Positions 6,123 to 22,298 of a DNA stretch of 44,889 bases are shown here, one piece after another. The position numbers were made by a program, and so were the translations under genes. The notes under the pieces are model-generated. The model was not told the origin of the DNA. It searched no databases and saw nothing but the letters and a program-made list of their open reading frames with translations. Within the stretch, counting starts at the first letter, position 1. Every line of letters begins with the position of its first letter. This DNA is from Escherichia phage RuthEpting_Bas85, in sequence record PQ850624.1; one strand, written 5' to 3'.

Positions 6123-6158
6123 TTTGTTTTCCTTCATATCTCTGTTGGTGTGCAACCA

Positions 6159-6187: not shown

Positions 6188-6277
6188 GCGAATTTTGCGA
6201 TTATTTTTATCGCTGATAATATTAGAAGCGTGAAGTCGAGCGGGTGGCCCGCTCTGCCACAATCCCAGGGGGATAGC

Positions 6278-6982
6278 ATGAAACTTACTAAAGCAGAATA
6301 TGACGCGTTGCCGGAAAGCATGAAGGCGCTTTTTGTTGCCGACGGCGATGGGTATAAGTCAACATTTATGTCCGCTGACGAAGTACAGGCGGAAATCAAG
6401 GGTCTGAAAGACAACAACGCAAAGCTGGTGAGCGAGAAGAAAGCAGAAGCTGAACGCCGCGCCGAAGCCGAGCGCCTTGCGAAAGAGAAAGAGGACGCCG
6501 CCGCGCGCAAAAATGGCGACCTCGAAGCGATTGATAAGTCCTGGAAGGATAAGTTTGCAAAACACGAAGCAGACACATCGGGGAAAATCGAATCCTATCG
6601 CAAGCAGATCCACGACCTTACTATCGGCAGCGCTGCCAAAGACCTGGCCTCGAAGCTGTTCGGTAAGAATGCTGGCATCATGCAACGCCACGTAATGGAA
6701 CGCCTCGCGCTGGAAGACGGCGAAGACGGCAGCTTGAAAGTGCGCGTCTTGCAGGATGGCAAACCGTCCGCTCTGACTATGGACGAGCTTGAAAAAGAGT
6801 TCCGTAATAACGCCGATTTTGCATCCGTCCTAGCTGGCACGCCAGCCGGTGGCGCTCCGAGCAAACCGACACAGGTTATCGAAGATGCGAAGTCTAAAAT
6901 CACGATGGGCCATAGCTTCGGTATCACCGACCTGACGAAACAGGCAGGGGATATCATCGCTAAGATGGGCGACGACGAGTAA
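6278..6982 (+). CDS. head scaffolding protein (putative)
   Basis: Start at ATG 6278 (RBS AGGGGGA); 234 aa, charged, coiled-coil-like (AEAERRAEAERLAKEKEDAAARK); immediately upstream of major capsid gene. Confidence 0.6.
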   Translation: MKLTKAEYDALPESMKALFVADGDGYKSTFMSADEVQAEIKGLKDNNAKLVSEKKAEAERRAEAERLAKEKEDAAARKNGDLEAIDKSWKDKFAKHEADTSGKIESYRKQIHDLTIGSAAKDLASKLFGKNAGIMQRHVMERLALEDGEDGSLKVRVLQDGKPSALTMDELEKEFRNNADFASVLAGTPAGGAPSKPTQVIEDAKSKITMGHSFGITDLTKQAGDIIAKMGDDE

Positions 6983-7079
6983 GCAGATCGCCCGCGAAAG
7001 CGGGCGATTTTGCTAGCGCGTAAATCTAAGGTAACATTAACGTCACTGGGCGAATGCTCACAACTCAAAGGATTTCGAT

Positions 7080-8180
7080 ATGTCTTTAACAGTGTTCCAG
7101 CGTAAACTCGTTACCGCGGTTACGCAAATGATCCCCGACAACCTGAACGTGTTCAACGCTGCCGCTAATGGCGCTGTTGTTCTCGGTACAGGTGAAGTGC
7201 TGAAGGACGTTGTAGAAAAAATGTCCGTCGGCTTGATCGCCAACCTCGTTACTGACCGTAACGCATATGCGCCTGTAGGCACACCGGCAACCGCTAAAGT
7301 GCTGGCGCGTATGCTGACCAACTCGGTTAACCTCTCCGCGAAAGTGGGTCCGGTAGCAATCACTAAGGCTATGATGGCTAAGATCGAAACCAACGTTAAC
7401 AGCGTTGCGGCTGAGATTGCGGCACAGGCTACTCAAGCGATTATGCTGCATTACCTGAAGGCAGGTATTGGCGCAAGTAAAGCGGCGATCGAGAGCAACG
7501 CAGCGGCAGCATACACCCAACCGGCGCGCGTTGATGGCGTTGGCGGTCGTACCTTCCCTACCCTGGCAGACTTCCCGCTGGCGGCTTCTAAGTTCGGCGA
7601 TCAGGCGTCTTTGATTAAGTCCTGGTTTATGGACGGCGTTACCTGGGCTAACTTCATTGCGTACCAGGCGCTGCCTTCCGCTGAGCAGGTATTCGCGATC
7701 GGCGATCTGCAAGTAATGGGTGATGGCCTGGGCCGTCGTTTCATTATCTCCGATGCCGCTGCCGATGCTATGGGCGCGGGTAAGATGCTGGGTCTGGTCC
7801 CTGGCGCGGTTGCAGTTACCACTAACGGCCTCGATATGCTGGCGCAGGAAAAAGGCGGTAACGAGAACATCGAGCGCTGGTGGCAGGGTGAGTTCGACTT
7901 CAACGTGGCTGTTAAAGGCTACCGTCTGAAGGCGTCCGCTCGTACTCCGATCGAAGGCGTCCGCTCTTTTGCCCTGGGTGATATCACCACTAAGGACAAC
8001 TGGGAACTGGATCAGGGCCAAGTAGACAACGCTCCGGCAACCGTTCAGGATGTTGGCGCGGTGGGTGATGGCGATACTAAAGGCCGTCGCAAGACCCAAG
8101 CAGCACAGGCCGTGCCGACCCGTAACATCAAGGAAACGGCTGGCGTACTGGTTACGCTGACTGCTACCAGCGCGTCTTAA
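7080..8180 (+). CDS. major capsid protein
   Basis: 366 aa, RBS AAGGA, followed by strong terminator; position after scaffold; composition typical of capsid proteins. Antisense ORF 7086-8189 judged spurious. Confidence 0.8.
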   Translation: MSLTVFQRKLVTAVTQMIPDNLNVFNAAANGAVVLGTGEVLKDVVEKMSVGLIANLVTDRNAYAPVGTPATAKVLARMLTNSVNLSAKVGPVAITKAMMAKIETNVNSVAAEIAAQATQAIMLHYLKAGIGASKAAIESNAAAAYTQPARVDGVGGRTFPTLADFPLAASKFGDQASLIKSWFMDGVTWANFIAYQALPSAEQVFAIGDLQVMGDGLGRRFIISDAAADAMGAGKMLGLVPGAVAVTTNGLDMLAQEKGGNENIERWWQGEFDFNVAVKGYRLKASARTPIEGVRSFALGDITTKDNWELDQGQVDNAPATVQDVGAVGDGDTKGRRKTQAAQAVPTRNIKETAGVLVTLTATSAS

Positions 8181-8197
8181 TCGGCGCACATCCCAAA

Positions 8198-8223
8198 GGG
8201 GCGGGCTTATGCCCGCCTTTTTT
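8198..8223 (+). terminator. rho-independent terminator after capsid gene
   Basis: GGGGCGGGC-ttat-GCCCGCC followed by TTTTTT. Confidence 0.75.
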
Positions 8224-8238
8224 ATAGGAGCGAATAAA

Positions 8239-8739
8239 ATGTATGGCGACCCGCAAACCTTTACTGATTATGCCGCTGCGCGAGGCGTTGAAATTACGCT
8301 GGGCGATGCAACGCGACACCTTACCATCGTTAATGACTTCCTCAACGGCCTCAACTGGATCGGCGAACAAGCAGACCAGACCGGAATCGACGCATGGCCC
8401 CGCATTAATTACCCGTCAGACGGTAAGCCGGTGCGAGACACGCTCACTGAAGTTGTGGCGGTAGTGCCTGCCGGGCAAATCGTAGACTTCGCATCAATCC
8501 CCGTTGCCGTTGAGCAAGCCGTTTACCGGCTGGCGATGCTGGTGGCGGACGATATTGATATTTCGCCGATCGGCGGTGGCAAGGAGACTATCCGCGAAAC
8601 GGTTGGCCCGATTACGATGGAATATGACCCCGCTACAATTGGCGGATACGTGGCGTTCCCGTGGTGGGATGGCTTGCTGGGCTACTGGGTGAACGTAGAC
8701 GGCAACGCTTCAGGTAACTTTGACGTATACAGGGGCTAA
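8239..8739 (+). CDS. head-tail connector / adaptor-like protein (putative)
   Basis: Start at ATG 8239 (RBS AGGAG); 166 aa; placement between capsid and tail genes; function by position only. Confidence 0.45.
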   Translation: MYGDPQTFTDYAAARGVEITLGDATRHLTIVNDFLNGLNWIGEQADQTGIDAWPRINYPSDGKPVRDTLTEVVAVVPAGQIVDFASIPVAVEQAVYRLAMLVADDIDISPIGGGKETIRETVGPITMEYDPATIGGYVAFPWWDGLLGYWVNVDGNASGNFDVYRG

Positions 8740-8740
8740 T

Positions 8741-8854
8741 ATGAATCCGGCTGTTATTGCAGCGTTGCTGGCAGCGCTGGCGACGAAAGAGAAAGAGGAA
8801 GAACCAGTACCGCCGGAAGCACCGGCGCAGGAGGAAGACGATGGCGGGCTTTGA
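8741..8854 (+). CDS. small acidic ORF (37 aa), uncertain
   Basis: ATG with G-rich RBS; MNPAVIAALLAALATKEKEEEPVPPEAPAQEEDDGGL; overlaps the start of the next gene; may not be expressed. Confidence 0.25.
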   Translation: MNPAVIAALLAALATKEKEEEPVPPEAPAQEEDDGGL

Positions 8855-9194
8855 CTACGCGGGCTTAAAGCGGAAAGTAAATCCGCTGATTAAAAAATTC
8901 GGCATGACAGTTACCGTGACGCGTCCTGGATCTGTTGACCGCGTTAACGGCGACGAAGTGGTAATCCCGCCGACCTCGTTTGATATCATCGGACTGCGTG
9001 AGGAGTACAAGCCACGCGAGATCGACGGGACTCGGGTAATTGCCGGTGATGTTAAATTCTTATGCCGGGCGGTGGAGCAATTGCAGGTAGGCGATCTGGT
9101 TAACCTGAATAACACAGACTACCGGGTCGTTAATACTAACCCCCTGCAACCGGCGGGCACGACCATGCTGTTTCAATTACAGCTAAGGGGGTAA
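8841..9194 (+). CDS. head-tail joining / head closure protein (putative)
   Basis: Start at ATG 8841 (RBS AGGAGG 6 nt upstream); the ORF-track extension from 8757 gives an implausible poly-basic N-terminus. Confidence 0.45.
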   Translation: MAGFDYAGLKRKVNPLIKKFGMTVTVTRPGSVDRVNGDEVVIPPTSFDIIGLREEYKPREIDGTRVIAGDVKFLCRAVEQLQVGDLVNLNNTDYRVVNTNPLQPAGTTMLFQLQLRG

Positions 9195-9195
9195 C

Positions 9196-9789
9196 GTGGC
9201 TGAGGTCTACTCGTTCGCCGCTACCATTGCAACATGGGTAGATAAGACGAAGGAGAACAACGACAAGGCGGTGCGGGCGACCGGTATGCAAATACTCGGA
9301 CGCCTGATTGAGATCTCCCCGGTGGGCGACCCCCGCCGGTGGAAGATTAACAAGGCTTATGCGATGGCCCGCCAGCACGCGAACAAGGTGAACGCCGCAC
9401 AGCGCCGCAAGAATGGCGGCAAACTGAAGCGCGGGCAGAAGAAGCACGCCAGTGTGCTAGTATCGTTCAAGACTAAAAACGGCAACGTCACGTTCCGCCA
9501 GCGTGGCTGGGCCGCGAAGAATTACACCGGCGGGCGCTTCCGGGGAAACTGGCAGGTGTCTTTCGATCGTCCGGCTGTTGGCGCTGTTGACCGGGTGGAC
9601 AAGGCCGGAACGGCAACATTGGCGGCGGGGCGTGACGTGCTGGCGCATTACGATTCTGGCGAATACGGGTCGATCTGGTTTACTAACAATGTGCCATATG
9701 CGCAGCGGCTTGAGTATGGCTGGAGTAAACAAGCGCCCGCGGGGATTGTTCGCGTCGTAGCGGCAGAAATCAATTCGAAGGTGAAATAA
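9196..9789 (+). CDS. tail completion protein (HK97 gp10-like, putative)
   Basis: GTG start after RBS AGGGGG; 197 aa; C-terminal NNVPYAQRLEYG segment typical of gp10-family head-tail proteins. Confidence 0.55.
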   Translation: MAEVYSFAATIATWVDKTKENNDKAVRATGMQILGRLIEISPVGDPRRWKINKAYAMARQHANKVNAAQRRKNGGKLKRGQKKHASVLVSFKTKNGNVTFRQRGWAAKNYTGGRFRGNWQVSFDRPAVGAVDRVDKAGTATLAAGRDVLAHYDSGEYGSIWFTNNVPYAQRLEYGWSKQAPAGIVRVVAAEINSKVK

Positions 9790-10211
9790 TGAGCAATACT
9801 CTAATCCGCAAGGCGCTTAACAGCGTAGTTGAAGAATTATCGGTAAGCCTGAGCACTAACCAGCGCCCGATCAAGGTTAACTGGGAGAACGTGAAGGGCG
9901 ACCACGCTATCGGCAATGGCGTGTACCTGGAGCCGTACTTGCTTCCGGCACCGACCCAGTTTGTTGGCATTCAGCAGAAGGGCCGGATCTACGCAGGCGT
10001 GTATCAGGTTGCCGTAGTGTTCCCCGCGGGCACTGGCACACAGTATGCGAGCGAACTGGCGGACGCCATCGCGACGTCAGACAAATGGCAGGGCGTAAAG
10101 ATTACCGGCGCTACCTTCCAGCTTCAGGACGCGCCCTACACCAGTTCGGTGATTGAAGATATCGACCGCGCCCGCATCGTGGTATCGGTCCTGTATAACT
10201 GTTGCGCCTGA
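9789..10211 (+). CDS. tail terminator / tail completion protein (putative)
   Basis: 140 aa immediately upstream of major tail gene; assignment by position. Confidence 0.45.
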   Translation: MSNTLIRKALNSVVEELSVSLSTNQRPIKVNWENVKGDHAIGNGVYLEPYLLPAPTQFVGIQQKGRIYAGVYQVAVVFPAGTGTQYASELADAIATSDKWQGVKITGATFQLQDAPYTSSVIEDIDRARIVVSVLYNCCA

Positions 10212-10272
10212 TTTGGCGCAATTCTGCGCGTGCTGTATCATTAATCCGTATATCTAAACAGGAGCTTTCATT

Positions 10273-10998
10273 ATGGGTTATCAACTTCCTAACGGGTCTA
10301 GCGTCCAGATTGGGTCCGTACTGGGCGACGGCATCGCTGTTACGGCAGCTACCAACGCCACCGCGTCGATCTCTGACCTCGCTACCGGTTGCGTTATTAC
10401 CTGCGCGGAATCTCATGGTCTGGTTGTTGGTGATGTGGTTATGTTCACTAAAACCCCGTGGGTCCGTGCGCTAAACCGCGCGTTTATCGTTGGCGCAGTG
10501 TCTACCAACGATGTGACGCTGGCGCGCTTCGACTCCTCGGACGTCACCAAATATCCTACCGGTGCTTTTGCAGTAGGCACTCCGGGTGAAGTGGTGAAGG
10601 TGTCGAGCTTTATCGACTTCCCGTTTATCACCAACGTTGCCGTGTCGGGTGGCGACCAGCAGACGACTACCTTCCAGCCGTTGCAGGTTAACACCGCGAT
10701 CAGCCTGAACACCACGAAAAACCCGTTGGTCCAGACTTACACCTTCACCCACGACGAAGAAGACCCGATCCGCCCAATCCTGGAAGACCTGGACGACACG
10801 CAGAAGACCACCGTGATCAAGTTCACTAACCCAGCGGCAGCAAGCGGCAAAGGTGAAATTCGTATTTACCCGGCTAAGGTATCTTTCCAGAAGATTCCGT
10901 CCGCTGAAGTAAACAACGTTGAAACGGTACAATCCACTCTGACCATGCAGTCTGATATGGTTATCTACCGTAAGGATCTGGTCGAGGCATTGTCTTGA
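10273..10998 (+). CDS. major tail protein
   Basis: 241 aa, Thr/Val/Gly-rich beta-type composition, followed by terminator and G/GT chaperone genes (lambda V-G-T-H order). Confidence 0.7.
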   Translation: MGYQLPNGSSVQIGSVLGDGIAVTAATNATASISDLATGCVITCAESHGLVVGDVVMFTKTPWVRALNRAFIVGAVSTNDVTLARFDSSDVTKYPTGAFAVGTPGEVVKVSSFIDFPFITNVAVSGGDQQTTTFQPLQVNTAISLNTTKNPLVQTYTFTHDEEDPIRPILEDLDDTQKTTVIKFTNPAAASGKGEIRIYPAKVSFQKIPSAEVNNVETVQSTLTMQSDMVIYRKDLVEALS

Positions 10999-11028
10999 TT
11001 TGGTCGCTTAAATAGCGAGTGTTAATAT

Positions 11029-11051
11029 GGGGCCAGCACGGCCCCTTTTTT
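11029..11051 (+). terminator. rho-independent terminator after major tail gene
   Basis: GGGGCC-agcac-GGCCCC followed by TTTTTT. Confidence 0.75.
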
Positions 11052-11067
11052 ATTGGAGAATATTACA

Positions 11068-11430
11068 ATGGCTAAAGCACCACTCTTCACACTTGACCCT
11101 AAGCCGACCTTTAAGCTGCCGATTGAGATCCCGCGCCCTGGTGAGAACGAGCCGGGCAAGATGACCTTTACCGTCCGCCACCGCCCGATCGACGAGTTTT
11201 CGCAGACCATGCAGGACACCGAGCGCAAGCTGTCGGAATATGACGACAATGACCCGGACGGCTTTAACGTTATGGTTGAGGCCATCATGCACGTCGCTGA
11301 AGGCTGGAATCTGCCAGACCAATTTAACGCTGAGAACGTCCGCCGCCTGGTAGTCAACTACCCGCGCGCGTTCGGCGTGTTCCACACCTCGTACTATCTC
11401 GAATTGATGGGATTGCGTGAAAAAAACTAA
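11068..11430 (+). CDS. tail assembly chaperone (gpG-like)
   Basis: Start at ATG 11068 (RBS GGAGAA); 120 aa; ends in slippery run GAA-AAA-AAC-TAA. Confidence 0.8.
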   Translation: MAKAPLFTLDPKPTFKLPIEIPRPGENEPGKMTFTVRHRPIDEFSQTMQDTERKLSEYDDNDPDGFNVMVEAIMHVAEGWNLPDQFNAENVRRLVVNYPRAFGVFHTSYYLELMGLREKN

Positions 11431-11744
11431 TTGAGGCGGCGCGACGCTTTTATGGCCCGCCGCCACCCTCCGAAGATGTAGCCGCAAGTTTATGGGGCGC
11501 GGCCCCCGAAGATGTTTGTCCGTCTGTTGCGCTATGGCCCGACAACGCGAAGATAGTCGCAGTCTTCACAGATTGCTCTACGCAATGGCGCACCGGATTC
11601 GGTGGGGCATACGGCATCGACTACGGCGTGCTGGAATGGCTATTTAAGATGCACGGCATCGAAAACGAGCAACGTGCATTTAAAGATATCAAGCTAATGG
11701 AGCGAATCGCGCTTGATGAAATGGCGCAACAAAACCCCGCATAA
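11068..11744 (+). CDS. tail assembly chaperone GT fusion via programmed -1 frameshift
   Basis: The -1 frame is open from the slippery heptamer A-AAA-AAC (11421-11427) to TAA at 11742-11744 and encodes a gpT-like tail (GGAYGIDYGVLEWLFKMHGIENEQRAF). Confidence 0.6.
11421..11427 (+). other. -1 ribosomal frameshift slippery site (A AAA AAC)
   Basis: Heptamer of form X-XXY-YYZ at the end of the G-like ORF; downstream -1 frame open for ~105 codons. Confidence 0.55.
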
Positions 11745-11748
11745 TGAA

Positions 11749-12018
11749 GCGGGACGGATCGGGACGTCCCGCTTTGTCCCGTTTTGTCCCGCCACCTGCA
11801 AAACTGCATACCTACTCACTTTCATTGCATAAACTAAAAGCGGGACGAGCGGGACGTCCCGATCCGTCCCGCCCCCTAAATGTGCATACCTATTCAGATT
11901 TCGTGCATAAAATAAGCGGGACAGAAAGCGGGACAAACATGGGGCGGGACAAAGCGGGACAGCACCCCGTCCCCGTCAGTGCTGCCGCGGGTTTTAGCCG
12001 ATCGGGACAAGCGGGACA
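11749..12018. repeat. iteron array A (GCGGGACA / TGTCCCGC, both orientations)
   Basis: At least 5 exact GCGGGACA copies (11916, 11928, 11944, 11954, 12011) plus GGGAC-core variants; two identical 12-bp palindromes CGGGACGTCCCG (11760-11771, 11850-11861); two tandem ~80-bp units carrying TGCATA...GCATAAA. Confidence 0.8.
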
Positions 12019-12023
12019 AACCC

Positions 12024-12072
12024 CAGTCTTTCAGACTAGACGGGGGTCAATGGCCCCCCTCGTCTGAGACTG
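12024..12072 (+). other. long imperfect hairpin A (conserved copy at 39750-39799)
   Basis: CAGTCTTTCAGACTAGACGGGGG-tcaatg-GCCCCCCTCGTCTGAGACTG; arms identical in the second copy, loop differs. Confidence 0.6.
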
Positions 12073-12140
12073 AATAAGGTTTGTTTGAAATTCGCTGATA
12101 CAATGTCAATCGGCAACTGCATAAAAAAGGGGACTGCATA

Positions 12141-14786
12141 ATGGCAGATCAAGCAGCAGGCATCACGCTAAAGGCGGATGTTGCACAAATCAGAACGGCG
12201 AATACGGTGCTGGACTCATTCGCGCAGAAGTCCGAGAACACCGAAAACAAGGTTAAGAAATTAAACGACACACTCGGCAACACGAAAAAGGTGACGGGTG
12301 ACGCCGCGGGCGGAATGGGGAAGCTGGCAACTGAATCGCAGCGCGCCGCAGATGGCATGACGAAGCAGGAGCGACTTGCCAACCGCTTAGGCATGTCGAC
12401 TAAAAACCTGGGCTTTGCCTCACGTAACGCCGCATTTCAGTTACAGGATATTGCGGTCACGCTAGAGATGGGTATGCCGGTGCACCGCGTCATGATTCAG
12501 CAGTTACCGCAGTTAACCGGGGCATTCGGTGGGCTGGGTAATACGCTGCGTTATGTTGCTGGCTTTCTCGGTCCGGTAGGGATCGGCCTTGCTGCGGTAA
12601 CGGCGACGTTAGGCGTAGGCGTGGCGATTACGTCCCGTGCCGAAAACCAGGTAGCGGCGCTGAATAAGACGCTGGCGCTATCAGGTAATATCTCTGGCCT
12701 CACCGCTAACCAGATCCTGGTGCTGTCGGAGAACGCCGAACGCATGGGCGGGTCATTCAGCAAGACGCGTGACACAATTCAGGCACTGGCGGCAGCAGGT
12801 GTGAAAGCGGGTGCTGACTTCGGCGCACTGGCGAAAGTGGTGAACGACTTCGCGAAGGTGTCTAATCAGCCGATCGCTGACGTGGTGGAGTCCATCTCCA
12901 AATTGTCCAACGACCCGGTGGGCGGATTGCGCGCACTGGCGGACAAGTATCACGTCGTTACCGAGGCGCAGATCCAGCAGGTGCAGTCACTGGTTACGAC
13001 GGGTCGCGAAACTGAAGCGGTGGCGTTGGCTAACAAAACAGCCGCGGCGTCGTTCACCAGCATGACCAACGAGATCAAGTCCAACATGGGTACGCTTGAG
13101 CGATCGATGAACGTCGTCACATCGGCAGCTAAATCTATGTGGGATGCCATCCTGGATGTGGGCCGCGCGCAGTCCTCGAATGAGTCCGAGATGAAAGCGC
13201 GTGAGTCCTTGCAGCGCATGACAACGGCTTACTATGCCGAGATGAAAGCGGTAAACGCTGCCGGTGGGGTAATGACCGAGGCGCAGAAAGCACGAATTAA
13301 CATGCTTTATAGCGAACTGGTCGCCCAGGAGAAGGTCGTAGCGTCACTCACCCTGCGCAACCGTGCTGAGCGCGACAACGCCAGCGCCGCGGACAAATCA
13401 GCGAAGGCGAACGAGGAGGCCAACCGCACCGCCCGCGACCGCGCCGCGTTCGAGAAGGAATTTGCCACCAACGCGCAGAAGCGCGCCGACGAGATCGCCC
13501 GCCTCAATTTGCTGAATAAGCGCGGTGTGATTAACGAGAAAGAACTAGCCGAGGCGGTGAAGCAGGTCAACGAGCGCTACAAAGACCCCGCACCGAAGAA
13601 GGCGGCGGCTATTCGCGTGGATGCCGGTGTCAAAATGCTGGAGGTCGCACGGAGCGAACTGGCACAGCTTAAGGAGTCCGGCAAGCAGATCGAGGCCAAT
13701 GCAACAACGCAGACCCGCACGCAGCGCGCACAGGCCGCGTTGAATAAGCTGGTGGCGGATAATGAGCAGATGGTCGCCGCAAGCATGGAGCGCACTCTAA
13801 CGGCAGCAGAAAAGCAGCAAATGGCGGAGTTCGAGGCGGTTAAAGCGGTACGCGAGCAGATCGTCGAAGAAGCCAAATTGCTGGACGCGAAAGAGAAGCA
13901 GATCAAGGCACACGCCCAGGTCGAGGCATTCATCAAGAACCAGAACGCTGAGCTAAGGGCCACCGCTGCGGGCTATGCGCTTTCCACTCGCGAAGCGGCT
14001 AACCTGCGCGAAGAATTACAGCTAATTGACCGCCTTCAGCGTGTCGGCGCTAACGATACTGATATTGACAACGCGGTGTCTAAGCTGCGCGAAGTGCAGG
14101 AAGCACAGACCGGTGCTAACGCCTCGTTGTGGGATGGCTTCAGCCGCGGGCTTAAGGATAGCGTGGATGAAATGGGTAACGGCTACACGCAGATGACGTC
14201 ACTCACAAAATTCACGTTCGGCGCTATGCAGGACACGATGAACAAGTTTTTCGAGACGGGCAAGCTGAGCGCGAAGGATATGGTTAAGTCCATCCTGAGC
14301 GAATTAATCAAGCTGGCTACCTCGCAGGCGTTCAAATCCATCGTTAGCGCTTTCGGCGGTGACGGCGGCAAAAACGGATTGTTCGGCGCTATCTTCTCGG
14401 GCCTCACTAAGAACGCAGACGGCGGAGCGTACGCAGGAGGCAATCTAGCGGCCTATTCCGGGCAAGTGGTAAGCCAGCCTACCTTTTTCAGCTATGGCGT
14501 CCAGGAGTTCGCGAAGGGCGCAGGATTGATGGGTGAGGCTGGACCCGAGGCAATCATGCCACTGAAGCGCGGGCCGGATGGGAAACTGGGCGTTGCCGCT
14601 GCCGGTGTTGGTGGGGGTGGGATGATTGTAACGACCAACGTGAACATGGGGACCGGTAAAACGGACACCAGTGTGAGCGGACCGGACCCACGCACCGCGC
14701 AGGCGTTCGGCAAGCAAATCACCGAGTCGGTCAAGGCTGAGATCGTGAAAGCGACGAAACCGGGTGGAGTACTTTACAAACGATGA
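12141..14786 (+). CDS. tail tape measure protein
   Basis: 881 aa, long alpha-helical Ala/Gln/Glu-rich protein with hydrophobic segments and Gly-rich C-terminus; follows the G/GT chaperone. Confidence 0.9.
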   Translation: MADQAAGITLKADVAQIRTANTVLDSFAQKSENTENKVKKLNDTLGNTKKVTGDAAGGMGKLATESQRAADGMTKQERLANRLGMSTKNLGFASRNAAFQLQDIAVTLEMGMPVHRVMIQQLPQLTGAFGGLGNTLRYVAGFLGPVGIGLAAVTATLGVGVAITSRAENQVAALNKTLALSGNISGLTANQILVLSENAERMGGSFSKTRDTIQALAAAGVKAGADFGALAKVVNDFAKVSNQPIADVVESISKLSNDPVGGLRALADKYHVVTEAQIQQVQSLVTTGRETEAVALANKTAAASFTSMTNEIKSNMGTLERSMNVVTSAAKSMWDAILDVGRAQSSNESEMKARESLQRMTTAYYAEMKAVNAAGGVMTEAQKARINMLYSELVAQEKVVASLTLRNRAERDNASAADKSAKANEEANRTARDRAAFEKEFATNAQKRADEIARLNLLNKRGVINEKELAEAVKQVNERYKDPAPKKAAAIRVDAGVKMLEVARSELAQLKESGKQIEANATTQTRTQRAQAALNKLVADNEQMVAASMERTLTAAEKQQMAEFEAVKAVREQIVEEAKLLDAKEKQIKAHAQVEAFIKNQNAELRATAAGYALSTREAANLREELQLIDRLQRVGANDTDIDNAVSKLREVQEAQTGANASLWDGFSRGLKDSVDEMGNGYTQMTSLTKFTFGAMQDTMNKFFETGKLSAKDMVKSILSELIKLATSQAFKSIVSAFGGDGGKNGLFGAIFSGLTKNADGGAYAGGNLAAYSGQVVSQPTFFSYGVQEFAKGAGLMGEAGPEAIMPLKRGPDGKLGVAAAGVGGGGMIVTTNVNMGTGKTDTSVSGPDPRTAQAFGKQITESVKAEIVKATKPGGVLYKR

Positions 14787-14792
14787 TAAAAT

Positions 14793-14822
14793 GGCCCTCA
14801 CATACAACGTGGGGGCTTTTTT
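14793..14822 (+). terminator. rho-independent terminator after tape measure gene
   Basis: GGCCCTCAC-atacaac-GTGGGGGC followed by TTTTTT, directly before ATG 14823. Confidence 0.6.
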
Positions 14823-15422
14823 ATGGCGCAAGGTACAATCACACTAACGAACGGAAGTAAGACCGTCACGGGCGCGGGGACGGCGTTCCTGAGCGAGATC
14901 GGGAAGGTCCGCGTATTTGCCCGCATCGACGGCAACGACTACACCGGTAAAATCGCTGCATTCAACTCTGACACCGTCATCACCCTGGTGGATAACTGGG
15001 CCGGTCCGACAAAAGCCGGTGCAGCCTACGAGCTAATCGAAGCGCACGACCCGCGATCAAACGAATGGCCCTATTACTGGCACATGCAATTGCAGGGCGG
15101 CGGCGACGTGCAATTGGCTTTCCGGTCGGAGGAATTGCAATTCGGTAACGGCTATGGTCAGAACATCGCAGACGGCCCGAACGCCGAGACGAAACAGTTC
15201 CCCGTGCAATTCATCGGACTGACTACGGACAAGTGGTGTGACCCTAAACTGGTGTACAACTTCCTTCGCGGGCACTTCGTCAAGCCGTTTGTCGTCACCG
15301 CGCCGGATGGCGAAACAGGTTTATTCGTGGTCGAGCGTTCGAGCTTGTCGTACACTGACAACGGACACTACACGGCAACTGTATCAGCCACCCTTAAGAC
15401 TGCTATTGGATTCGTAAGATGA
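14823..15422 (+). CDS. minor tail protein (gpM-like) with fibre-type N-terminal domain
   Basis: C-terminal half resembles lambda gpM (LQFGNGYGQ..., YNFLRGHFVKPF). N-terminal ~80 aa (MAQGTITLTNGSKTVTGAGT...SDTVITLV...GPT) parallels the N-terminus of the side fibre at 22299. Confidence 0.7.
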   Translation: MAQGTITLTNGSKTVTGAGTAFLSEIGKVRVFARIDGNDYTGKIAAFNSDTVITLVDNWAGPTKAGAAYELIEAHDPRSNEWPYYWHMQLQGGGDVQLAFRSEELQFGNGYGQNIADGPNAETKQFPVQFIGLTTDKWCDPKLVYNFLRGHFVKPFVVTAPDGETGLFVVERSSLSYTDNGHYTATVSATLKTAIGFVR

Positions 15423-16207
15423 ATAAACTATATCGCGAGGCGACGCGCTTTGACCCATCGGGCCGCGTTCGCCTGATTCACATTGACGCGCAGGACGTGG
15501 AGCCGGGCGACGGCGCGATCGGCGCGGGCCACCACTATTTTCATTACTGCTTTATTCCGCATACTGCCGAAGATATTGCTGCCGCTGGTGGAGACGAGGA
15601 CAAGCTGAAGCCAAAATCTATCTTCTTTGGCGGGCAGGAGTTCGAATTTTGGCCCTTCGATTTGTCCGGCCTCAACTTCTCCACATCAACGGCAGCAGAA
15701 CCGCAGCTAACTATCGTCGATATTGGCGGGATTATTACCCGGCTATCGCTGAATCACGACCAGCTACTTGGCGCGAAGGTTGAAATCATAGACACGTTTG
15801 CTAAGTTCCTGGACAACGGGCCAGATCCAGACCCAACGCAAAAACGTGTACAGGAGTTTTACATCGACTCCCAGGTGGGCCGAAATCCGGGCAAACAAAT
15901 CACCTTCGCATTATCCTCGCCCGCGGATATGGAGGGGCAAGTAGTCCCGCGCCGCCAAATCATGAACATGTGCGAATGGGCGCTCAATGGGAAGTACGCC
16001 AGCGGGGACGGGTGCACGTGGAACCTTGCACAGCCAGGCATCAAGTATTATGACGAGCGCGGTAATGAAGTCATCGCGATGGATATGGACCGGTGCGGCG
16101 GCTGTTTGTCCGACTGTTATCTTCGATTTGGACAAGGGCTTGCAGATCCGAAAGCGGCGGTACTGGACTACGGCGGCTTTCCGGGGTCCAGATTAATTAA
16201 GGGGTAG
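15419..16207 (+). CDS. minor tail protein (gpL-like)
   Basis: 262 aa; C-terminal Cys cluster (CEW...CTW...CGGC...CYL) consistent with the Fe-S motif of lambda gpL; position M-L-K-I-J. Confidence 0.85.
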   Translation: MNKLYREATRFDPSGRVRLIHIDAQDVEPGDGAIGAGHHYFHYCFIPHTAEDIAAAGGDEDKLKPKSIFFGGQEFEFWPFDLSGLNFSTSTAAEPQLTIVDIGGIITRLSLNHDQLLGAKVEIIDTFAKFLDNGPDPDPTQKRVQEFYIDSQVGRNPGKQITFALSSPADMEGQVVPRRQIMNMCEWALNGKYASGDGCTWNLAQPGIKYYDERGNEVIAMDMDRCGGCLSDCYLRFGQGLADPKAAVLDYGGFPGSRLIKG

Positions 16208-16209
16208 TC

Positions 16210-16950
16210 ATGTTAACGAAAAAGGTTAAGAGCGATATCGCCGCACACGTTGCGGCATGTCTGCCTGAAGAAGCGTGCGGCCTGGTCGTCATGGTGGGCC
16301 GTAAGCAAGTATTTATCCCGTGCCTGAACGTGTTCGAAGACCCGACCGGCGCGCGATCGCGTAAGGACGCGTTTACAATTAGTGATATGGCATGGATGGG
16401 CGCCGAGGATATTGGCGACGTCGTGCGCGTAGTCCACTCACATCCAGGTCAGCGGGAGTTAACCCCATCATTGGGCGACGTTAACGGATGCAACGGCAGC
16501 GGCATAGTGTGGACCATTACTAACGAGTACGGCGACTTTATCGAGATCGACCCTGAAGACCCACCACTGGTAGGTCGCCGATTTGTTCTCGGAATTACGG
16601 ATTGCTATGGCCTCGTCATGGACTGGCACAAAAAGCAGGGCGTGAATCTGCCTGACTTCCGCGTGCCGTACAACTGGTGGGAGATGGGCGAAAGCCTGTA
16701 CATGGATAACTGGTATGATGCGGGATTCAGGGAGTGCGCGGAGAATACGCCGGGGGCAATGGTCATCATGCAGATTAGCGCACCAGTGCCAAACCATGCT
16801 GGGATCTTCCTTCCGGGCAACCAACTACTACACCATATCTACGGCAGCCTGTCGAGCGTGGTCCCCTTCCGGGCAGGATTTTTCCGCGACAATGTGGTTA
16901 AATGGGTACGTCATAAAGACTTACCTGGGGAAATCACAGAATGGCAATGA
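16210..16950 (+). CDS. tail assembly protein (gpK-like; MPN/JAMM + NlpC/P60 domains)
   Basis: JAMM-type motif VVHSHPGQ...SLGDV and a C-terminal Cys/His hydrolase-like region (ITDCYGLVMDWH). Confidence 0.85.
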   Translation: MLTKKVKSDIAAHVAACLPEEACGLVVMVGRKQVFIPCLNVFEDPTGARSRKDAFTISDMAWMGAEDIGDVVRVVHSHPGQRELTPSLGDVNGCNGSGIVWTITNEYGDFIEIDPEDPPLVGRRFVLGITDCYGLVMDWHKKQGVNLPDFRVPYNWWEMGESLYMDNWYDAGFRECAENTPGAMVIMQISAPVPNHAGIFLPGNQLLHHIYGSLSSVVPFRAGFFRDNVVKWVRHKDLPGEITEWQ

Positions 16951-17558
16951 CCACATTTAAATTGTACGGCGTCTTAGGACGTCGTTTTGGTAAAGTGCAT
17001 AAGCTGGACTGCTTCACACCTGGCGAGGGTATCACCGGCCTATGCGTGAAGTTGCCAGGCTTACAGGACTTTCTAATGTCGGCCCACCTGGAAAACATGA
17101 TGTTCAAGGTGCGCAAGGGTAATCACACAATGACCGGCTACGACGAGTTGGGTGAGTTCCACGGCGACCGCGTAGTTACCATCGCGCCGGTTATGACTGG
17201 TGCTAAAAGCGGACTTGGACAATTGCTGGCTGGCGTAGCTATCGTGGTGGCGTCGTTCTACACTGGCGGGCTTGCCGCTGCCGCTTTCGGGGCTTCCGCT
17301 GCGACCGCCGCCGCTATCGGAACGGCGACGTTTTCGTTCGGTATGTCGCTTGCGCTGGGCGGCGCTATGCAATTGCTGTCACCGCAACCGAAAGGATTGC
17401 AGACACGGCAGGACGTGGATAACAAGGCGTCGTATGCGTTCGGCGGGCCGGTAAACACGACCGCGCAAGGCACAGCACTTGGTGTATTATGGGGAGAGCG
17501 TGAGATCGGCGGCGCTATTATTTCAGCCGGAATTGTAACCGAGGATTTGAACGAATGA
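16941..17558 (+). CDS. tail assembly protein (gpI-like)
   Basis: 205 aa with Gly/Ala-rich hydrophobic C-terminal half; position between K-like and J-like genes. Confidence 0.7.
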   Translation: MAMTTFKLYGVLGRRFGKVHKLDCFTPGEGITGLCVKLPGLQDFLMSAHLENMMFKVRKGNHTMTGYDELGEFHGDRVVTIAPVMTGAKSGLGQLLAGVAIVVASFYTGGLAAAAFGASAATAAAIGTATFSFGMSLALGGAMQLLSPQPKGLQTRQDVDNKASYAFGGPVNTTAQGTALGVLWGEREIGGAIISAGIVTEDLNE

Positions 17559-20500
17559 CGATTATCTACGACGTCACGGGCCATAAAGGCGGCGGTGGCA
17601 AACAGCACACCCCACAGGAGACGCCTGATAGCCTGCATTCGCTGGCTAAAATCCGCATCTTGCTCGCACTGGGCGAGGGCGAATTTGAAGGCATTCCCGA
17701 CCCTAACGAATTACGGCAGCGTGTATACCTGGACGGCACACCGATCCAGAACGCCGACCTGTCGGATAACTTCCCCGGCGCGCGCGTGGAGTTCCGCCCC
17801 GGCACGCAGCACCAGGATGTGATTCACGGTTTTTCAGCGGTGGAAAGCGAGCAAACAGTAGGCGTAAAACTGGAACAGGGACAGCCGTGGGTCCGCCAGA
17901 TTTCGGACACCAGTCTGGACGCGGTGCGTATTCGAATCGGTATTCCGGCCCTGTACACTAACGAAGATAATGGCGACCTGGTGGGCGGGCGCATCGACTA
18001 TAAAATCGTTGTGTATACCGATAACGCCGATCCGCGCGAGTTTACATTCGCTGCCGTTGGTAAAACAATGTCGCTGTACGAGCGGGACCACCGCATCGAA
18101 TTACCGCCGAACGTTAACACCGGCTGGCGCGTGGAGGTGCACCGCACAACGACAGACTCCACATCGGCGAAAGTGGTCAACGATATCCAGGTACAATCCA
18201 TTACTGAGATTATCGACGCCCGCCTGCGTTACCCGCTAACCGCGCTGTTGTTCGTGGAGTTCGATGCTAAGGCGTTCCAGAACATCCCGCGTGTGTCCAT
18301 CAAGTGCAAAGGCCGCAAAGTGCTGATCCCGAACAACTACGACCCCGTGAACCATACCTATTCGGGCGATTGGGATGGCACATTTAAACGCGCCTGGACG
18401 GATAACCCGGCATGGCACTGGTACGATATTTGTATTACTGAGCGCTTCGGCCTCGGTCGTCGTGTCAAGCCACAAATGCTAAACCGTTACGCGCTCTACC
18501 AGATTGCGCAGCGCTGCGATCAGATGGTCAGTGACGGCAACGGCGGACAGGAAATCCGATTTAAGAATGATATGTACATTCAGTCGCAGACAGACGCCTG
18601 GACCGTGCTGAAGGATTTAGCGGCAATCTTTGCCGGTATGACTTGGTGGGGCAACCAGATGTTGAATATCGTCAGCGACCAGCCGGTCGCAGCGGTGTCG
18701 CACACTATCACCAACGCCTCGGTTATTGATGGTAGATTCGACTACGCATCAGGAAGCCAGAAAACTCGGTATTCCACGTTCTCGGTAGCCTACGGCAACC
18801 CGAAAAACCATTACGAGGACGCCATCGCAACGGGCCAGCGTGTCGAACTGGTGCGCCGCCATAAGATTAACCGCCTTGATATCACGGCGATCGGCTGTAC
18901 GCGAGAATCTGAAGCGCAACGCCGCGGGCACTGGGCGCTAATCTCCAACCAGCTTGACCAGCAAGTTAGCTTTAAGGTTGGCATGGAGGGGCTATTCTTT
19001 ATTCCGGGGAGCGTAGTTGCGATCGCGGATACTAACATTTCTGGCGGCTTCGAGACACGCGGCGGTCGCCTGTTGTCTGACCCCGGCACGCGCACCGTGC
19101 TGAACACAGACAGCGAAATCACGTTCCGCCCTGGTGATAAATTCCTGGTGCGCACCGATAGCGGTAATGTGGAGACTCGCGAGATTGCCAGCGTCAACGG
19201 CAACCAGGTCACGCTAAAAACCGCACTGGACGCCGACCCGATTCCTGATCAGCCGTTTTGCGTTGATGGCGATGATATCCAGTTGCAGAAGTTCCGCATC
19301 ACCGACCTGGAATATGACGACGCTACCAGCACTTTTTCGGTGCGCGGGATTGAGTACAACGATAGCAAATATGATGCCGTTGATAATGGCGCGCGTCTTG
19401 ATCCGGGTATATTCACGCAAGTGCCAGACGGCGTAATGAAGGGACCGGAATCCGTGACCATCACCACGTCGCAGATTTCATCACAAGGCCAGCTAATCAC
19501 TAACGTGGATATTGTATTCCCGCCGGTGAAGGATGCCGTTGTGTACGAAATCCAGTGGCGACGTACCAGCTTGCAGAATCTGGAAGTACAGTGGGGCAAC
19601 GACTGGGTGAACATCCCACGCACGGCATCGAACGGGGCGCACATCCCGAACGTGTTTTCTGGTAACTACCAGGCACGCGTCCGCGCGATCGGTATGGGCG
19701 AGATTTCATCCCCGTGGGTGTCATCCGCCATCACGCCGGTGGAGGGTCGTCTTGGTGGGCTTAACGCGCCTATCATCACCAACGCGATTTCGGGCCTTCA
19801 CCAAATTTTGTGGAAGTGGAACCACAACAACGCCGCGACGGATATTTCGTATACCGAGCTTGAAGTGCGCAAGCTGGGAGAAACGGAATGGAAATTCCTA
19901 ACCAACGTCCCATATCCGGGGTCGGACTATGCACAAACGTCGCTGGAGTTCGGGATCTATCAGCAGTTGCGCGCACGCGTAGCGGATAAAATCGGCAACC
20001 TGTCAGACTGGTCAGATCCGTTCGACGGGCAGGTGAGTGACAAAGTTGACGAGTACATGCAGGGGCTTGATGACGAGTTCTTGACTTCCGAGGACGGTAA
20101 ACACTTCCAGGAAGCAATCGACACCATTCCGCAAGGCATCTATGAGTCAATGCTTACGGACGCCCAGCAGTTATTCAACGCCCGCGCCGAGTATAAAGGG
20201 ATTTATGCGGAAATTACGGTGGCGTATAACGTGGCGGCGGATGCTCACGAAGCTGTAGCGCAACTGGAGACGTTGATCGGCACGCGCCTTGACGATGCGG
20301 AAGCGTCAATCCACACGTTGCAGACCGCGCAAAGCACGCATGAGCAAGCATTCGCCCAGTACCAACAAACTGTTGCCGCTAAGTTCGGGGAGCAGGAAGC
20401 TGCCATCCAGCAGGTACAAACGGCAACGGCAGACGTAGCTGGCGCGCTGGCGGAGTATAAGACCCAGGTCGCGGCACAGTTCGGACAGCAGTCCGCAGCT

Positions 20501-21001
20501 ATCGAGCAGAAGATGACGTCTTCGTTTAACCATGCTGGCGGTAGCGCCACCTACAGCCTAAAAGCTGGCGTGACGTATAACGGGACTTACTATGATGCCG
20601 GTATGCAGCTTTCAGTTGTGGCGGAAGGTGGCGCGGTTAAATCCCGCATCGCGTTCAAGGCGGACCAGTTCTACATCATGCACCCGTCAAATGGGTCGCT
20701 TTCGTCCGCGTTCATCGTTGACGGCGGGCAGGTGTATATCGACACGGCACGCATCAAGAACGCGTCCATTAACTTCGCGCAGATCACGGACACGCTGCAA
20801 TCCAATAACTGGAATCCGGGTAACAGCGGCTGGCGTATCGCGAAGGATGGCGGGGCAGAGTTCAACAACGTTACGGTACGCGGCAACCTGTACGCAAATA
20901 CGGGTAACTTCGGATTCTCCGGCGGGTCAGTGACTATTGACGCAACGGGCGTCAACGTGCCATTACCTGGAGGGGGCAGGGTGAAAGTCGGAACGTGGTA
21001 A
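17555..21001 (+). CDS. central tail fibre / host specificity protein (gpJ-like)
   Basis: 1148 aa; largest tail gene, follows I-like gene; ends at a strong terminator. Confidence 0.9.
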   Translation: MTIIYDVTGHKGGGGKQHTPQETPDSLHSLAKIRILLALGEGEFEGIPDPNELRQRVYLDGTPIQNADLSDNFPGARVEFRPGTQHQDVIHGFSAVESEQTVGVKLEQGQPWVRQISDTSLDAVRIRIGIPALYTNEDNGDLVGGRIDYKIVVYTDNADPREFTFAAVGKTMSLYERDHRIELPPNVNTGWRVEVHRTTTDSTSAKVVNDIQVQSITEIIDARLRYPLTALLFVEFDAKAFQNIPRVSIKCKGRKVLIPNNYDPVNHTYSGDWDGTFKRAWTDNPAWHWYDICITERFGLGRRVKPQMLNRYALYQIAQRCDQMVSDGNGGQEIRFKNDMYIQSQTDAWTVLKDLAAIFAGMTWWGNQMLNIVSDQPVAAVSHTITNASVIDGRFDYASGSQKTRYSTFSVAYGNPKNHYEDAIATGQRVELVRRHKINRLDITAIGCTRESEAQRRGHWALISNQLDQQVSFKVGMEGLFFIPGSVVAIADTNISGGFETRGGRLLSDPGTRTVLNTDSEITFRPGDKFLVRTDSGNVETREIASVNGNQVTLKTALDADPIPDQPFCVDGDDIQLQKFRITDLEYDDATSTFSVRGIEYNDSKYDAVDNGARLDPGIFTQVPDGVMKGPESVTITTSQISSQGQLITNVDIVFPPVKDAVVYEIQWRRTSLQNLEVQWGNDWVNIPRTASNGAHIPNVFSGNYQARVRAIGMGEISSPWVSSAITPVEGRLGGLNAPIITNAISGLHQILWKWNHNNAATDISYTELEVRKLGETEWKFLTNVPYPGSDYAQTSLEFGIYQQLRARVADKIGNLSDWSDPFDGQVSDKVDEYMQGLDDEFLTSEDGKHFQEAIDTIPQGIYESMLTDAQQLFNARAEYKGIYAEITVAYNVAADAHEAVAQLETLIGTRLDDAEASIHTLQTAQSTHEQAFAQYQQTVAAKFGEQEAAIQQVQTATADVAGALAEYKTQVAAQFGQQSAAIEQKMTSSFNHAGGSATYSLKAGVTYNGTYYDAGMQLSVVAEGGAVKSRIAFKADQFYIMHPSNGSLSSAFIVDGGQVYIDTARIKNASINFAQITDTLQSNNWNPGNSGWRIAKDGGAEFNNVTVRGNLYANTGNFGFSGGSVTIDATGVNVPLPGGGRVKVGTW

Positions 21002-21008
21002 ATGCGAA

Positions 21009-21030
21009 GGGGCCATCTGGCCCCTTTTTT
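21009..21030. terminator. bidirectional rho-independent terminator
   Basis: GGGGCC-atct-GGCCCC followed by TTTTTT; between convergent J-like gene and minus-strand gene. Confidence 0.75.
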
Positions 21031-21994
21031 AATAGATGTTAGGGATGACTAATAGCGGGGTGGGTACGGCAATATTTTTGCCCGGCATTTGGAATTGCTG
21101 CCGTGAGTAGTTGCCAATAACGCGGTTTTTAGCGATGCGCACATTATTACCCGCCATTCGTATCCCGTTCATGCGCACATGGTTATAGCCTCCGTTGTTC
21201 TCAATGAGCGCACCGGTATATGAAAGCTGGATCAGACTATTACCGATGTGCTGGTCGCCGCCACCGATATTAATCGTTCGGTCGTAGACAAACGGCTTGT
21301 TTACCGTCGAGAACGTGACCTGCCCCTGGTTGTTAGTCATGGTGATACCGGTCCCCGGTGAGGGCGGCGTATTGTTGAATATGACCAGGTCCATATCAAC
21401 GGCAGCGCCTACGTCGTCAATCCCGCCATAGGACGCATTACGGACAATGATACTTCCGCCATCGAAGCCAACCGATACGTTGCCGTCGTCCCAGCGCGCG
21501 AACGGGACACCGCCGACTGGTAGCGGCATACTTCCGTTTACATGCACGCGCTGCGCATATCGGCACGTCATTAGCCGTGATACGTTGGATATGGCGGTGA
21601 AGTCCGTTGAGTTAGCCACCAGTAAGCCCGCATTGCGTGACCCCACCGGCAGCACTTCCATAATCACCCCGCCCCATGTTGGAAGCCCGCTGTATGCGTT
21701 ATAGGCGTCCTCACCGCGCAAGGTGATTCCGCCATCCCCGTTACGTTGTATCGACGTCACATAAAACGGGTCTGGCAAGACCAGGGTCTGGTCGAATACC
21801 TCAATCACTTCAACCGGATTAGTTAGGGCAACGACCAGTTCGGACCCTGGTGTCAGCGGTGTGTTAATGGACAGCGTCTTGTCAGACTGACAGCGCTGAT
21901 TAAAGGTAGTGCAAAACGACGGAGCGCGAAGGCCCGCGGTTATCTCCATGACAGGTCTACCGTCGTTGTAGTCGATTAATATTCCGGCACCCAT
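21029..21994 (-). CDS. receptor-binding / tail tip protein (putative)
   Basis: ATG at 21994 with RBS GGGAG (ORF track extends to GTG 22003); ~321 aa, Gly/Asn/Val/Ile-rich beta-type composition, no signal peptide; co-oriented with the lipoprotein gene upstream. Function by context only. Confidence 0.4.
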   Translation of the reverse strand: MGAGILIDYNDGRPVMEITAGLRAPSFCTTFNQRCQSDKTLSINTPLTPGSELVVALTNPVEVIEVFDQTLVLPDPFYVTSIQRNGDGGITLRGEDAYNAYSGLPTWGGVIMEVLPVGSRNAGLLVANSTDFTAISNVSRLMTCRYAQRVHVNGSMPLPVGGVPFARWDDGNVSVGFDGGSIIVRNASYGGIDDVGAAVDMDLVIFNNTPPSPGTGITMTNNQGQVTFSTVNKPFVYDRTINIGGGDQHIGNSLIQLSYTGALIENNGGYNHVRMNGIRMAGNNVRIAKNRVIGNYSRQQFQMPGKNIAVPTPLLVIPNIY

Positions 21995-21996
21995 TA

Positions 21997-22218
21997 TTAC
22001 CACTCCCGTGATTTAACTGATACAGTACCGGAAAAATTGCCGTCGCTATCGGCAGACAGGCCAGTGAAGCGCATGTCAACATCTCCGGCAGGGACTTTTT
22101 GCCCGTCAACGTAACGCAACATGCAGCTTCCGTAAGCCACCGTAATGCAATCACCGTTGTTGCGTTCTACAGCACAACCGGACAAAAGGACCGCACAAAT
22201 CATAATTAAAGTTTTCAT
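21997..22218 (-). CDS. Cor/Llp-like superinfection-exclusion lipoprotein (putative)
   Basis: Start at ATG 22218 (RBS GGAGA); 73 aa; signal peptide MKTLIMICAVLLSGC with lipobox LSGC; small Cys-containing mature part; adjacent to tail fibre genes. Confidence 0.55.
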   Translation of the reverse strand: MKTLIMICAVLLSGCAVERNNGDCITVAYGSCMLRYVDGQKVPAGDVDMRFTGLSADSDGNFSGTVSVKSREW

Positions 22219-22235
22219 GTTATCATCTCCTATAT

Positions 22236-22269
22236 TTGGTTGAGTTTTAGTATTACACCGCTCAACCAA
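22236..22269. promoter_or_regulatory. operator-like inverted repeat upstream of the lipoprotein operon
   Basis: TTGGTTGAG-N16-CTCAACCAA (9-bp arms) enclosing TAGTATTAC; lies within the 5' extension of the minus-strand ORF track (ORF 21997-22281), upstream of the preferred ATG 22218. Confidence 0.4.
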
Positions 22270-22298
22270 GAATGCAACCAATTTATGAGGATTCAGCT

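Follow-up and report, generated by a model that had tools for sequence, protein, structure and literature searches.

The dhillonviruses are among the most often isolated small siphoviruses of Escherichia coli, and they serve as models both in the BASEL collection and in work on the LptD receptor. Elsewhere among phages, distal tail proteins (Dits) that carry decorations are known in pb9 of T5, with its C-terminal OB domain, in the Dit of phage Chi and in the CBM-bearing Dits of phages of lactic acid bacteria. Such additions to the Dit are well established, and so are fibre anchors that are arranged in rings (lambda, T5 and the pyocins). A further decorated Dit is gp17 of Sf11, which has an adaptor helix and a large appendage (PMC12724387). 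As for the attachment of side fibres, in the pyocin PyoF13 an N-terminal domain (aa 2-76) anchors the side fibre, such that two of the three protomers in every side fibre use their N-domains and the following stem helices to grip the central fibre at its coiled-coil shaft, and the anchors make up a pseudo-sixfold ring (PMC13455828; bioRxiv 10.64898/2026.02.24.707460). One pyocin study describes this anchor as an OB domain and likens it to the domain that decorates pb9, the Dit of T5 (PMC13455828 / 10.64898/2026.02.24.707460). In Ur-lambda, residues K2 and W6 of gpM lie outside the ring, where they touch the 12-membered Stf collar at the junction of tube and Dit (PMC12617516).

The locus described here is the tail region of Escherichia phage RuthEpting_Bas85 (PQ850624.1), for which the whole stretch of 44,889 nucleotides was analysed and is referred to as the window. 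Judged from its sequence, its gpM-like gene encodes a decorated Dit, that is to say an ordinary subunit of the ring between tail tube and tip, with a 76-aa barrel of a fibre-anchor family at its N-terminus; this extra folded domain sits on the core and is absent from minimal Dits.

The tail locus and its gpM-like protein

The window is assigned to Dhillonvirus from its 98.7% identity to Escherichia phage Haito_Bas83 over the 12 kb of the tail region, which more than 150 other Dhillonvirus genomes also match. Pfam matches of the neighbouring ORFs, along with the annotation of Bas83, give the tail gene order TMP-M-L-K-I-J, with the gpM gene between the tape measure gene and gpL; gpJ is followed by two genes on the minus strand and then by the lateral fibre gene (22299-24077). 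The features are collected in Table 1. The gpJ-like protein matches the central fibre of an F2-pyocin (25vf_A) at E 6e-225, and the region of its coiled-coil shaft (~aa 860-990) aligns to pyocin residues 977-1184. By analogy with the F-pyocins, the anchor of the lateral fibre may dock on this shaft.

Table 1. Features of the tail locus, in window coordinates
Feature	Position	Strand	Evidence or remark
Tape measure gene	12141-14786		
Terminator-like hairpin and T-run	14793-14817	+	Left edge of variable cassette, directly upstream of gpM start
gpM-like protein, predicted distal tail protein (Dit), 199 aa	14823-15422	+	
Predicted N-terminal fibre-anchor-family beta-barrel of Dit, aa 1-78	14823-15056	+	BLASTP, HMM, PHROG, AF2
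Exchangeable cassette: all of gpM and first ~58 codons of gpL	14827-15592	+	blastn against L003/L004
Dit core, gpM-like tail-tube-fold domain, aa 79-199 and stop	15057-15422	+	
gpL-like hub protein, 262 aa	15419-16207	+	Pfam PF05100; 23gd_C 'Hub protein gp21'
gpK	16210-16950		
gpI	16941-17558		
gpJ-like central fibre/hub, 1148 aa	17555-21001	+	Pfam; 23gd_D
N-terminal anchor beta-barrel of lateral fibre, aa 1-75	22299-22523	+	BLASTP, PHROG, HMM
Conserved fibre 'stem', aa 76-140 (...MSLATMGVTVQAQKALRMLIADENNWRAIFG...ITVTLPNGQ...)	22524-22718	+	
Variable shaft and receptor-binding part of lateral fibre	22719-24077	+	
Peptidase_S74 intramolecular chaperone, fibre C-terminus, aa 479-534	~23733-23900		Pfam PF13884, E 6e-12

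The C-terminal part of the gpM-like protein has the properties of a Dit. Pfam PF05939 (Phage_min_tail) matches aa 86-187 with 44.1 bits against a cut-off of 39, and phmmer finds the T1 Dit (9l9p_H) at E 3.8e-12. The core is predicted to adopt a tail-tube-like fold, with moderate AF2 confidence (pLDDT ~60-70), and a fold search places this half of the protein near the Dits of T1 and lambda. The protein further matches a deposited structure, PDB 23gd, through the 199-aa chain 23gd_B, which is named 'Distal tail protein gp20' (phmmer, E 1e-130). Counterparts of gpL and gpJ of the window are present in this entry too, as 'Hub protein gp21' and 'J-like tail tip protein gp24', and tblastn identifies its sequence as that of phage Oekolampad (Bas18), itself a Dhillonvirus. 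It contains two gp20 chains for each gpL chain and J chain, a ratio which fits a 6:3:3 complex. Since the orthologue thus belongs to the tail tip deposited for Oekolampad, the gpM-like protein is, by sequence orthology, taken as a structural ring component of the virion. A sequence-only reading of this DNA had called it a tail-tip assembly protein with a gpM-like C-terminal half; the gpM-like half stands, and the assembly protein gives way to a ring protein of the particle.

A sequence search of the PDB deposits found no lateral-fibre chain of a Dhillonvirus, 23gd being likewise without one, and no publication on the Oekolampad tail tip (23gd) or on the Dit of a Dhillonvirus was found in the literature. 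The Dit domain is absent from the text of the paper on LptDE-binding receptor-binding proteins (RBPs; PMC12685063) and from that of both BASEL papers, and gpM and Dit go unmentioned in the paper on modelling of Dhillonvirus RBPs (PMC12309495).

The two minus-strand genes downstream of gpJ are of separate interest. The first (21029-22003) encodes a 324-aa DUF6453 protein (Pfam E 4e-119), labelled 'membrane protein; moron' in Haito_Bas83, which by its size and its position directly after gpJ appears to be the counterpart of the Oekolampad-type LptDE-binding RBP (PMC12685063). The label looks wrong, because position and size fit an RBP and because BASEL predicts LptD specificity for Bas83-85. Immediately downstream of this putative RBP, a small protein (21997-22281, minus strand) matches Pfam PF24052 (Phage_lipoprotein) at E 6e-21; 'hypothetical' in Bas83 (21990-22211 in that phage's own coordinates), it is probably a superinfection-exclusion lipoprotein of the Rtp45/Cor type.

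The module shared by Dit and lateral fibre

Residues 1-76 of the Dit and residues 1-75 of the lateral fibre are homologous. BLASTP aligns residues 1-72 of both proteins with 40% identity (E 2e-9), and the local alignment score of 114 lies far above that of 2000 shuffles (25.8 +/- 4.7, z ~19). The claim of the sequence-only reading that the two N-termini align is upheld by this control, and BLASTP, shuffles, HMM and AF2 together point to a single homologous, independently folding module. Indeed, an HMM built from 121 fibre N-termini of unrelated sources matches the gpM-like protein at positions 1-74 with E 2.2e-21, and when this fibre-only model is run on the six-frame translation of the window it yields exactly two matches, the fibre and gpM, with no third copy. 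Tail-fibre families of PHROG match aa 1-72 of the Dit at E 1e-14 to 2e-19; the N-termini of the fibres in phrog_1980, phrog_17834 and phrog_28473 belong to the same barrel family.

AF2 predicts that aa 1-72 of the Dit form a compact six-stranded beta-barrel (strands 5-8, 14-18, 30-35, 38-49, 52-55 and 64-72) with a pLDDT of 83-93 in a run with a 36-row alignment, as against 34 from the single sequence. The domain proper comprises ~aa 1-72 and is joined by a short linker, EAHDPRSN (~6 residues to the core). In fold searches the N-terminal half of the Dit resembles the N-terminal particle-binding domains of tailspikes, and also the ring-forming crown barrels of F1-ATPase and HerA; the match to T5 pb9 (5mf2_C) in Foldseek is weak (prob 0.25). 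Pfam gives no match for aa 1-80 of the Dit, and none to a carbohydrate-binding family either. That the module should be a known carbohydrate-binding or Ig family was considered and rejected, as there is no such Pfam match on the phage proteins; sub-threshold echoes of PF05354 and CBM_5_12 occur solely in the cellular tandem-array proteins described below.

An exhaustive profile search brought together 3508 cluster representatives at 50% identity, in most of which the domain stands at residue 1 of a protein of 200-800 aa; it also occurs internally and as tandem arrays. The module thus belongs to a very large family (~3500 representatives) for which no Pfam model was found. The lateral fibre at 22299 has the arrangement typical of the family on fibres, with the domain at residue 1 and a helical stem after it; the Dit copy is followed by the Dit core. 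Since the domain stands at residue 1 throughout the family, the shorter starts at 14823 for gpM and 22299 for the fibre are favoured, which argues that these are the real ones. In some relatives the gpM ORF is called as 212 or 218 aa (P0001; JLBYU60 P0002), and the mechanical ORF of the fibre begins 27 nt upstream (22272-22298, plus strand), giving 601 aa. The tandem arrays, of 4-13 copies, are found in proteins of 1000-2900 aa (P0011-P0014, P0018, P0037, P0040) together with PKD, SdrD_B or Peptidase_C25, on contigs of up to 333 kb that are presumably cellular; one such protein is annotated as a 'putative baseplate assembly protein' in a cyanobacterial MAG. Because of these arrays, the domain is not confined to phage fibres.

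A profile of the module matches residues 6-73 of the side fibre of an F2-pyocin (25ve; PyoF13) at E 4e-5, with aa 3-72 of the module covered, and the identity to pyocin side-fibre anchors is 31-34%. The module is thus a genuine anchor of fibres in at least one system of known structure, the pyocin, and by homology it would serve attachment of the Dhillonvirus fibre too. In their fibre, the anchor is conserved in all Dhillonvirus-like loci, those with a short gpM included. The stem is likewise kept across all loci, with a dN/dS of 0.055, while the remainder of the fibre varies, and the stem probably belongs to the attachment region. According to BASEL, the fibre gene is conserved at its far 5' end only (PMC8594841). 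Overall the lateral fibre is similar to the T5-like L-shaped fibre 8hqz_d, and its length among relatives ranges from 538 to 893 aa. Within the shaft, a 42-nt (14-aa) tandem repeat (…IKTDTQAIHDAT…) is present at 22795-22885 on the plus strand in 2.2 copies with 88% match (fibre aa ~166-196), as part of a longer run of similar 14-residue repeats that extends to ~aa 235. Such repeats could allow length variation through slippage or recombination.

Distribution, cassette variants and selection

The long form of the Dit is a property of a single genus. All 165 records with it are Dhillonvirus, and all 165 cultured Dhillonvirus records are long. The proteins closest to the Dit core (55-65% identity) have 122-125 aa and start with MA-(V)E(K)WPYYW right where the module ends; the W in the MA.EKW of these short forms would align by position with the N-terminal region of lambda gpM that contacts the collar. 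More than 900 other phage homologues of gpM, those of T1 and lambda included, align from aa 84 only. The module occupies the stretch from the start codon to the beginning of the Dit core. Of the 192 phage records that contain the domain, none but those of Dhillonvirus have two copies in one genome; in N15 (gp25), Salmonella phages SW-37/S107 and phiES15 the fibre alone bears it. As Dit homologues elsewhere are short and as two copies are confined to Dhillonvirus, the fusion is a gain in the Dhillonvirus lineage. Internal initiation as a source of a short Dit from the long gene was discarded, the sole internal Met (aa 88) lying within the conserved core motif WPYYWHMQ.

Short Dits do occur at Dhillonvirus-like loci, in metagenome assemblies only. 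Two of these loci, L003 and L004, are metagenomic contigs from two independent samples in which the fibre gene ends at the contig end after 181-193 aa. By blastn they share 88.7% identity with the window over 6143-14826 and 15593-22841; between these stretches identity falls to 67.8% over 15066-15576, and 14827-15065 has no match, the N-domain being absent. Their gpL is 415 aa long, with an insertion of 156 aa after ~codon 58 (window ~15593; L003 10526-10994), and the N-terminus of their fibre is near-identical to that of ordinary dhillonviruses although it stands beside a short Dit. The combination of short Dit and long gpL recurs in L005 and L006, and L002 and L022 have a short Dit with a short gpL; in all four, the anchor of the fibre and its conserved stem are retained. 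Because the short-Dit variants keep the same fibre N-terminus, this type of fibre does not need the Dit barrel. In the loci examined the gpL insertion never occurs together with the Dit N-domain. The insertion has no match among Pfam or PHROG families; in roseophage R4C it matches the 'Megatron' baseplate protein at residues 497-617 (8gtc_M, E 1.6e-4).

The hairpin at the left edge of the cassette has a 9-bp GC-rich stem and a T-run that ends 5 nt before the gpM ATG, and lies between TMP and gpM. Alignment finds the same hairpin and ATG in L002, L003 and L005, so that both are kept with or without the N-domain, distant relatives included. A terminator-like element within a late operon is odd, and may attenuate transcription or affect the initiation of translation.

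In the 16 long-form genomes compared, dN/dS is 0.12 for the barrel, 0.04 for the Dit core and 0.02 for gpL. The Dit barrel is under purifying selection, ~3x less constrained than the Dit core and ~6x less than gpL. In Mantel tests the distances of the barrel track those of gpL (r 0.87) and of the Dit core (r 0.83); between the barrel and the fibre anchor there is no co-variation (r 0.00, p 0.44), in a comparison whose power is low given that the 16 genomes are mostly 95-97% identical.

Possible roles of the Dit barrel and comparison with known systems

On balance, we favour a reading in which the barrel is an accessory, peripheral module, which adds surface contacts or helps to organise the collar, and is not the obligatory socket of the fibre, the fibre docking instead on a common site. 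The six barrels would project as knobs from the outer face of the junction of tube and tip, because the linker is only ~6 residues long and the N-terminus of Ur-lambda gpM faces the collar. There they might make weak, multivalent contacts with the cell surface, by analogy with other decorations of Dits and tubes such as the OB domain of T5 pb9, or they might stabilise or organise the collar region. The fibre would attach by means of its own N-domain and conserved stem, at a site common to lambda-like tips. This could be either the coiled-coil shaft of J, which would correspond to the F-pyocins, or the junction of tube and Dit, which would correspond to Ur-lambda. That all cultured records keep the long Dit could mean that the barrel is of more importance than the word 'accessory' implies.

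This bears on the suggestion, made from the sequence, of a common docking domain. The module does belong to a family that attaches fibres, as the match to PyoF13 (E 4e-5) attests, but the case for the gpM copy as the dock of the fibre is weakened on several counts: L003/L004 combine a short gpM with the same fibre; in N15, SW-37/S107 and phiES15 no protein but the fibre bears the domain; the homologue in the pyocin docks on the central-fibre shaft; and the two copies do not co-vary. A version in which the Dit copy does take part in docking would be a mixed collar, where six Dit barrels and the N-domains of the fibres stand side by side in one ring, for instance as 6+6 = 12. Each of three trimeric fibres would put in two of its anchors out of three, as PyoF13 does, the Dit would supply half of the ring and set the number of fibres, and in relatives with a short Dit the ring would consist of fibre domains alone. 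The presence of one domain family on both Dit and fibre is in keeping with such an arrangement, and so are the pseudo-sixfold ring of pyocin anchors from two of three protomers (PMC13455828; 10.64898/2026.02.24.707460) and the collars of lambda and T5, which consist of 12 small domains at this height of the tail and, in the former, are touched by the gpM N-terminus (PMC12617516). Moreover, six domains of ~2.5 nm cannot by geometry close such a ring alone, Dits often act as docking hubs, for example in Sf11 (PMC12724387), and even L003/L004 are compatible if homologous domains could substitute for one another. We nonetheless regard the mixed collar as doubtful. Besides the missing co-variation of Dit and fibre copies, the solved pyocin homologue sits on the central-fibre shaft, ~20 nm from the Dit; the Dit is without a barrel in the tips of N15 type and in those of pyocins; the alternative cassette swaps the barrel for an unrelated gpL insertion and not for nothing; and the Oekolampad deposit has no fibre chain. 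The stronger proposition, of a hetero-oligomeric collar to which the ring protein gives half of the socket, such that swaps of the Dit cassette reset the number and position of the fibres, we hold to be unlikely. If true, it would constitute a previously undescribed way to resolve the 6-to-3 mismatch and to tune fibre stoichiometry by recombination.

Two further explanations give the barrel no part in fibre docking. As a structural brace it would clamp the last tube ring, or the arm of gpL, to the Dit ring, with no role towards fibre or host, and would stabilise the junction or aid the assembly of tip to tube. Its tight co-variation with gpL and Dit core (r 0.87 and 0.83) is what a brace would lead one to expect, yet physical linkage explains this equally well; the exchange of the barrel with the N-terminal arm of gpL as one cassette, the purifying selection on it, and the use of similar beta-barrels as ring crowns in F1-ATPase and HerA fit as well. 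However, the barrel evolves 3x faster than the Dit core and 6x faster than gpL, which is unusual for a load-bearing interface, and T1, lambda, L002 and L022 build the same junction without it, such that a brace seems quite improbable. Finally, the domain could be the neutral remnant of a swap, left when the resident fibre gene was recently duplicated or took part in illegitimate recombination; two copies do lie in one genome, both at the extreme N-terminus and with near-identical first residues (M-A-x-G-T). But the gpM copy shares only 36-42% identity with Dhillonvirus fibre anchors and is nearer to those of N15-type fibres (43-48%), to which the resident fibre anchor is in turn 56% identical, and the best PHROG differs between the two (phrog_17834 for the gpM copy, phrog_1980 for the resident fibre). 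These identities and this ranking speak against a recent duplication within the genome, and with the domain in all 165 long-form records at a dN/dS of 0.12, a neutral remnant is hardly credible. Of the domain-swap event that the sequence-only reading had put forward, the acquisition of a domain thus survives, the module lying within a sharp-edged recombination cassette, and the exchange with the resident fibre does not.

Whichever role applies, a Dit copy of an anchor-family domain, together with a solved pyocin homologue, allows concrete models for the attachment of lateral fibres that bind O-antigen. The natural forms of the cassette (long Dit; short Dit with gpL insertion; neither decoration) offer themselves as controls for engineering, and the module, in that it marks the N-termini of fibres, could improve the annotation of those now labelled 'hypothetical' or 'minor tail protein'.

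In terms of known systems, no description was found of a Dit with an N-terminal extra domain homologous to the anchor of its own lateral fibre, nor of a three-state cassette polymorphism at the Dit/gpL junction. The nearest relative of all, gp20 of Oekolampad (Bas18; 23gd), is an orthologue of 199 aa and ~95% identity with the same two-part architecture, and there is no difference in kind. Lambda gpM and the T1 Dit (PF05939) are like the C-terminal 120 aa in Pfam family, gene position and fold, but at 109-117 aa they have no N-terminal module. In T5 pb9, Sf11 gp17 and the Dits of Chi and the lactic phages the addition stands at the C-terminus or within the protein and has no homology to the domain that anchors the fibre of the same phage, whereas in the Dhillonvirus Dit it is N-terminal and of the fibre-anchor family. 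The collars of Ur-lambda Stf, T5 p132 and DT57C LtfC are likewise made of small domains that surround the junction of tube and Dit and keep the side fibres in place. These domains have another fold, however (an Ig-like six-strand sheet with a helix), and it is the fibre or a dedicated protein, not the Dit, that supplies them; neither PDB sequence searches, which covered Ur-lambda entries, nor fold matches connected the module or the fibre with the collar chains of Ur-lambda or T5. A close parallel to the module itself is the 'OB' anchor of F-pyocin side fibres (PyoF13/PA0643/PA0646; 25ve, 25vj), a ~70-aa barrel of the same sequence family with a helical stem after it, in a lambda-like tip whose J is strongly homologous to J of the window. 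In the pyocin, the domain is present on the fibre only and docks on the central-fibre shaft, the Dit being without it, whereas here a second copy is carried by the Dit.
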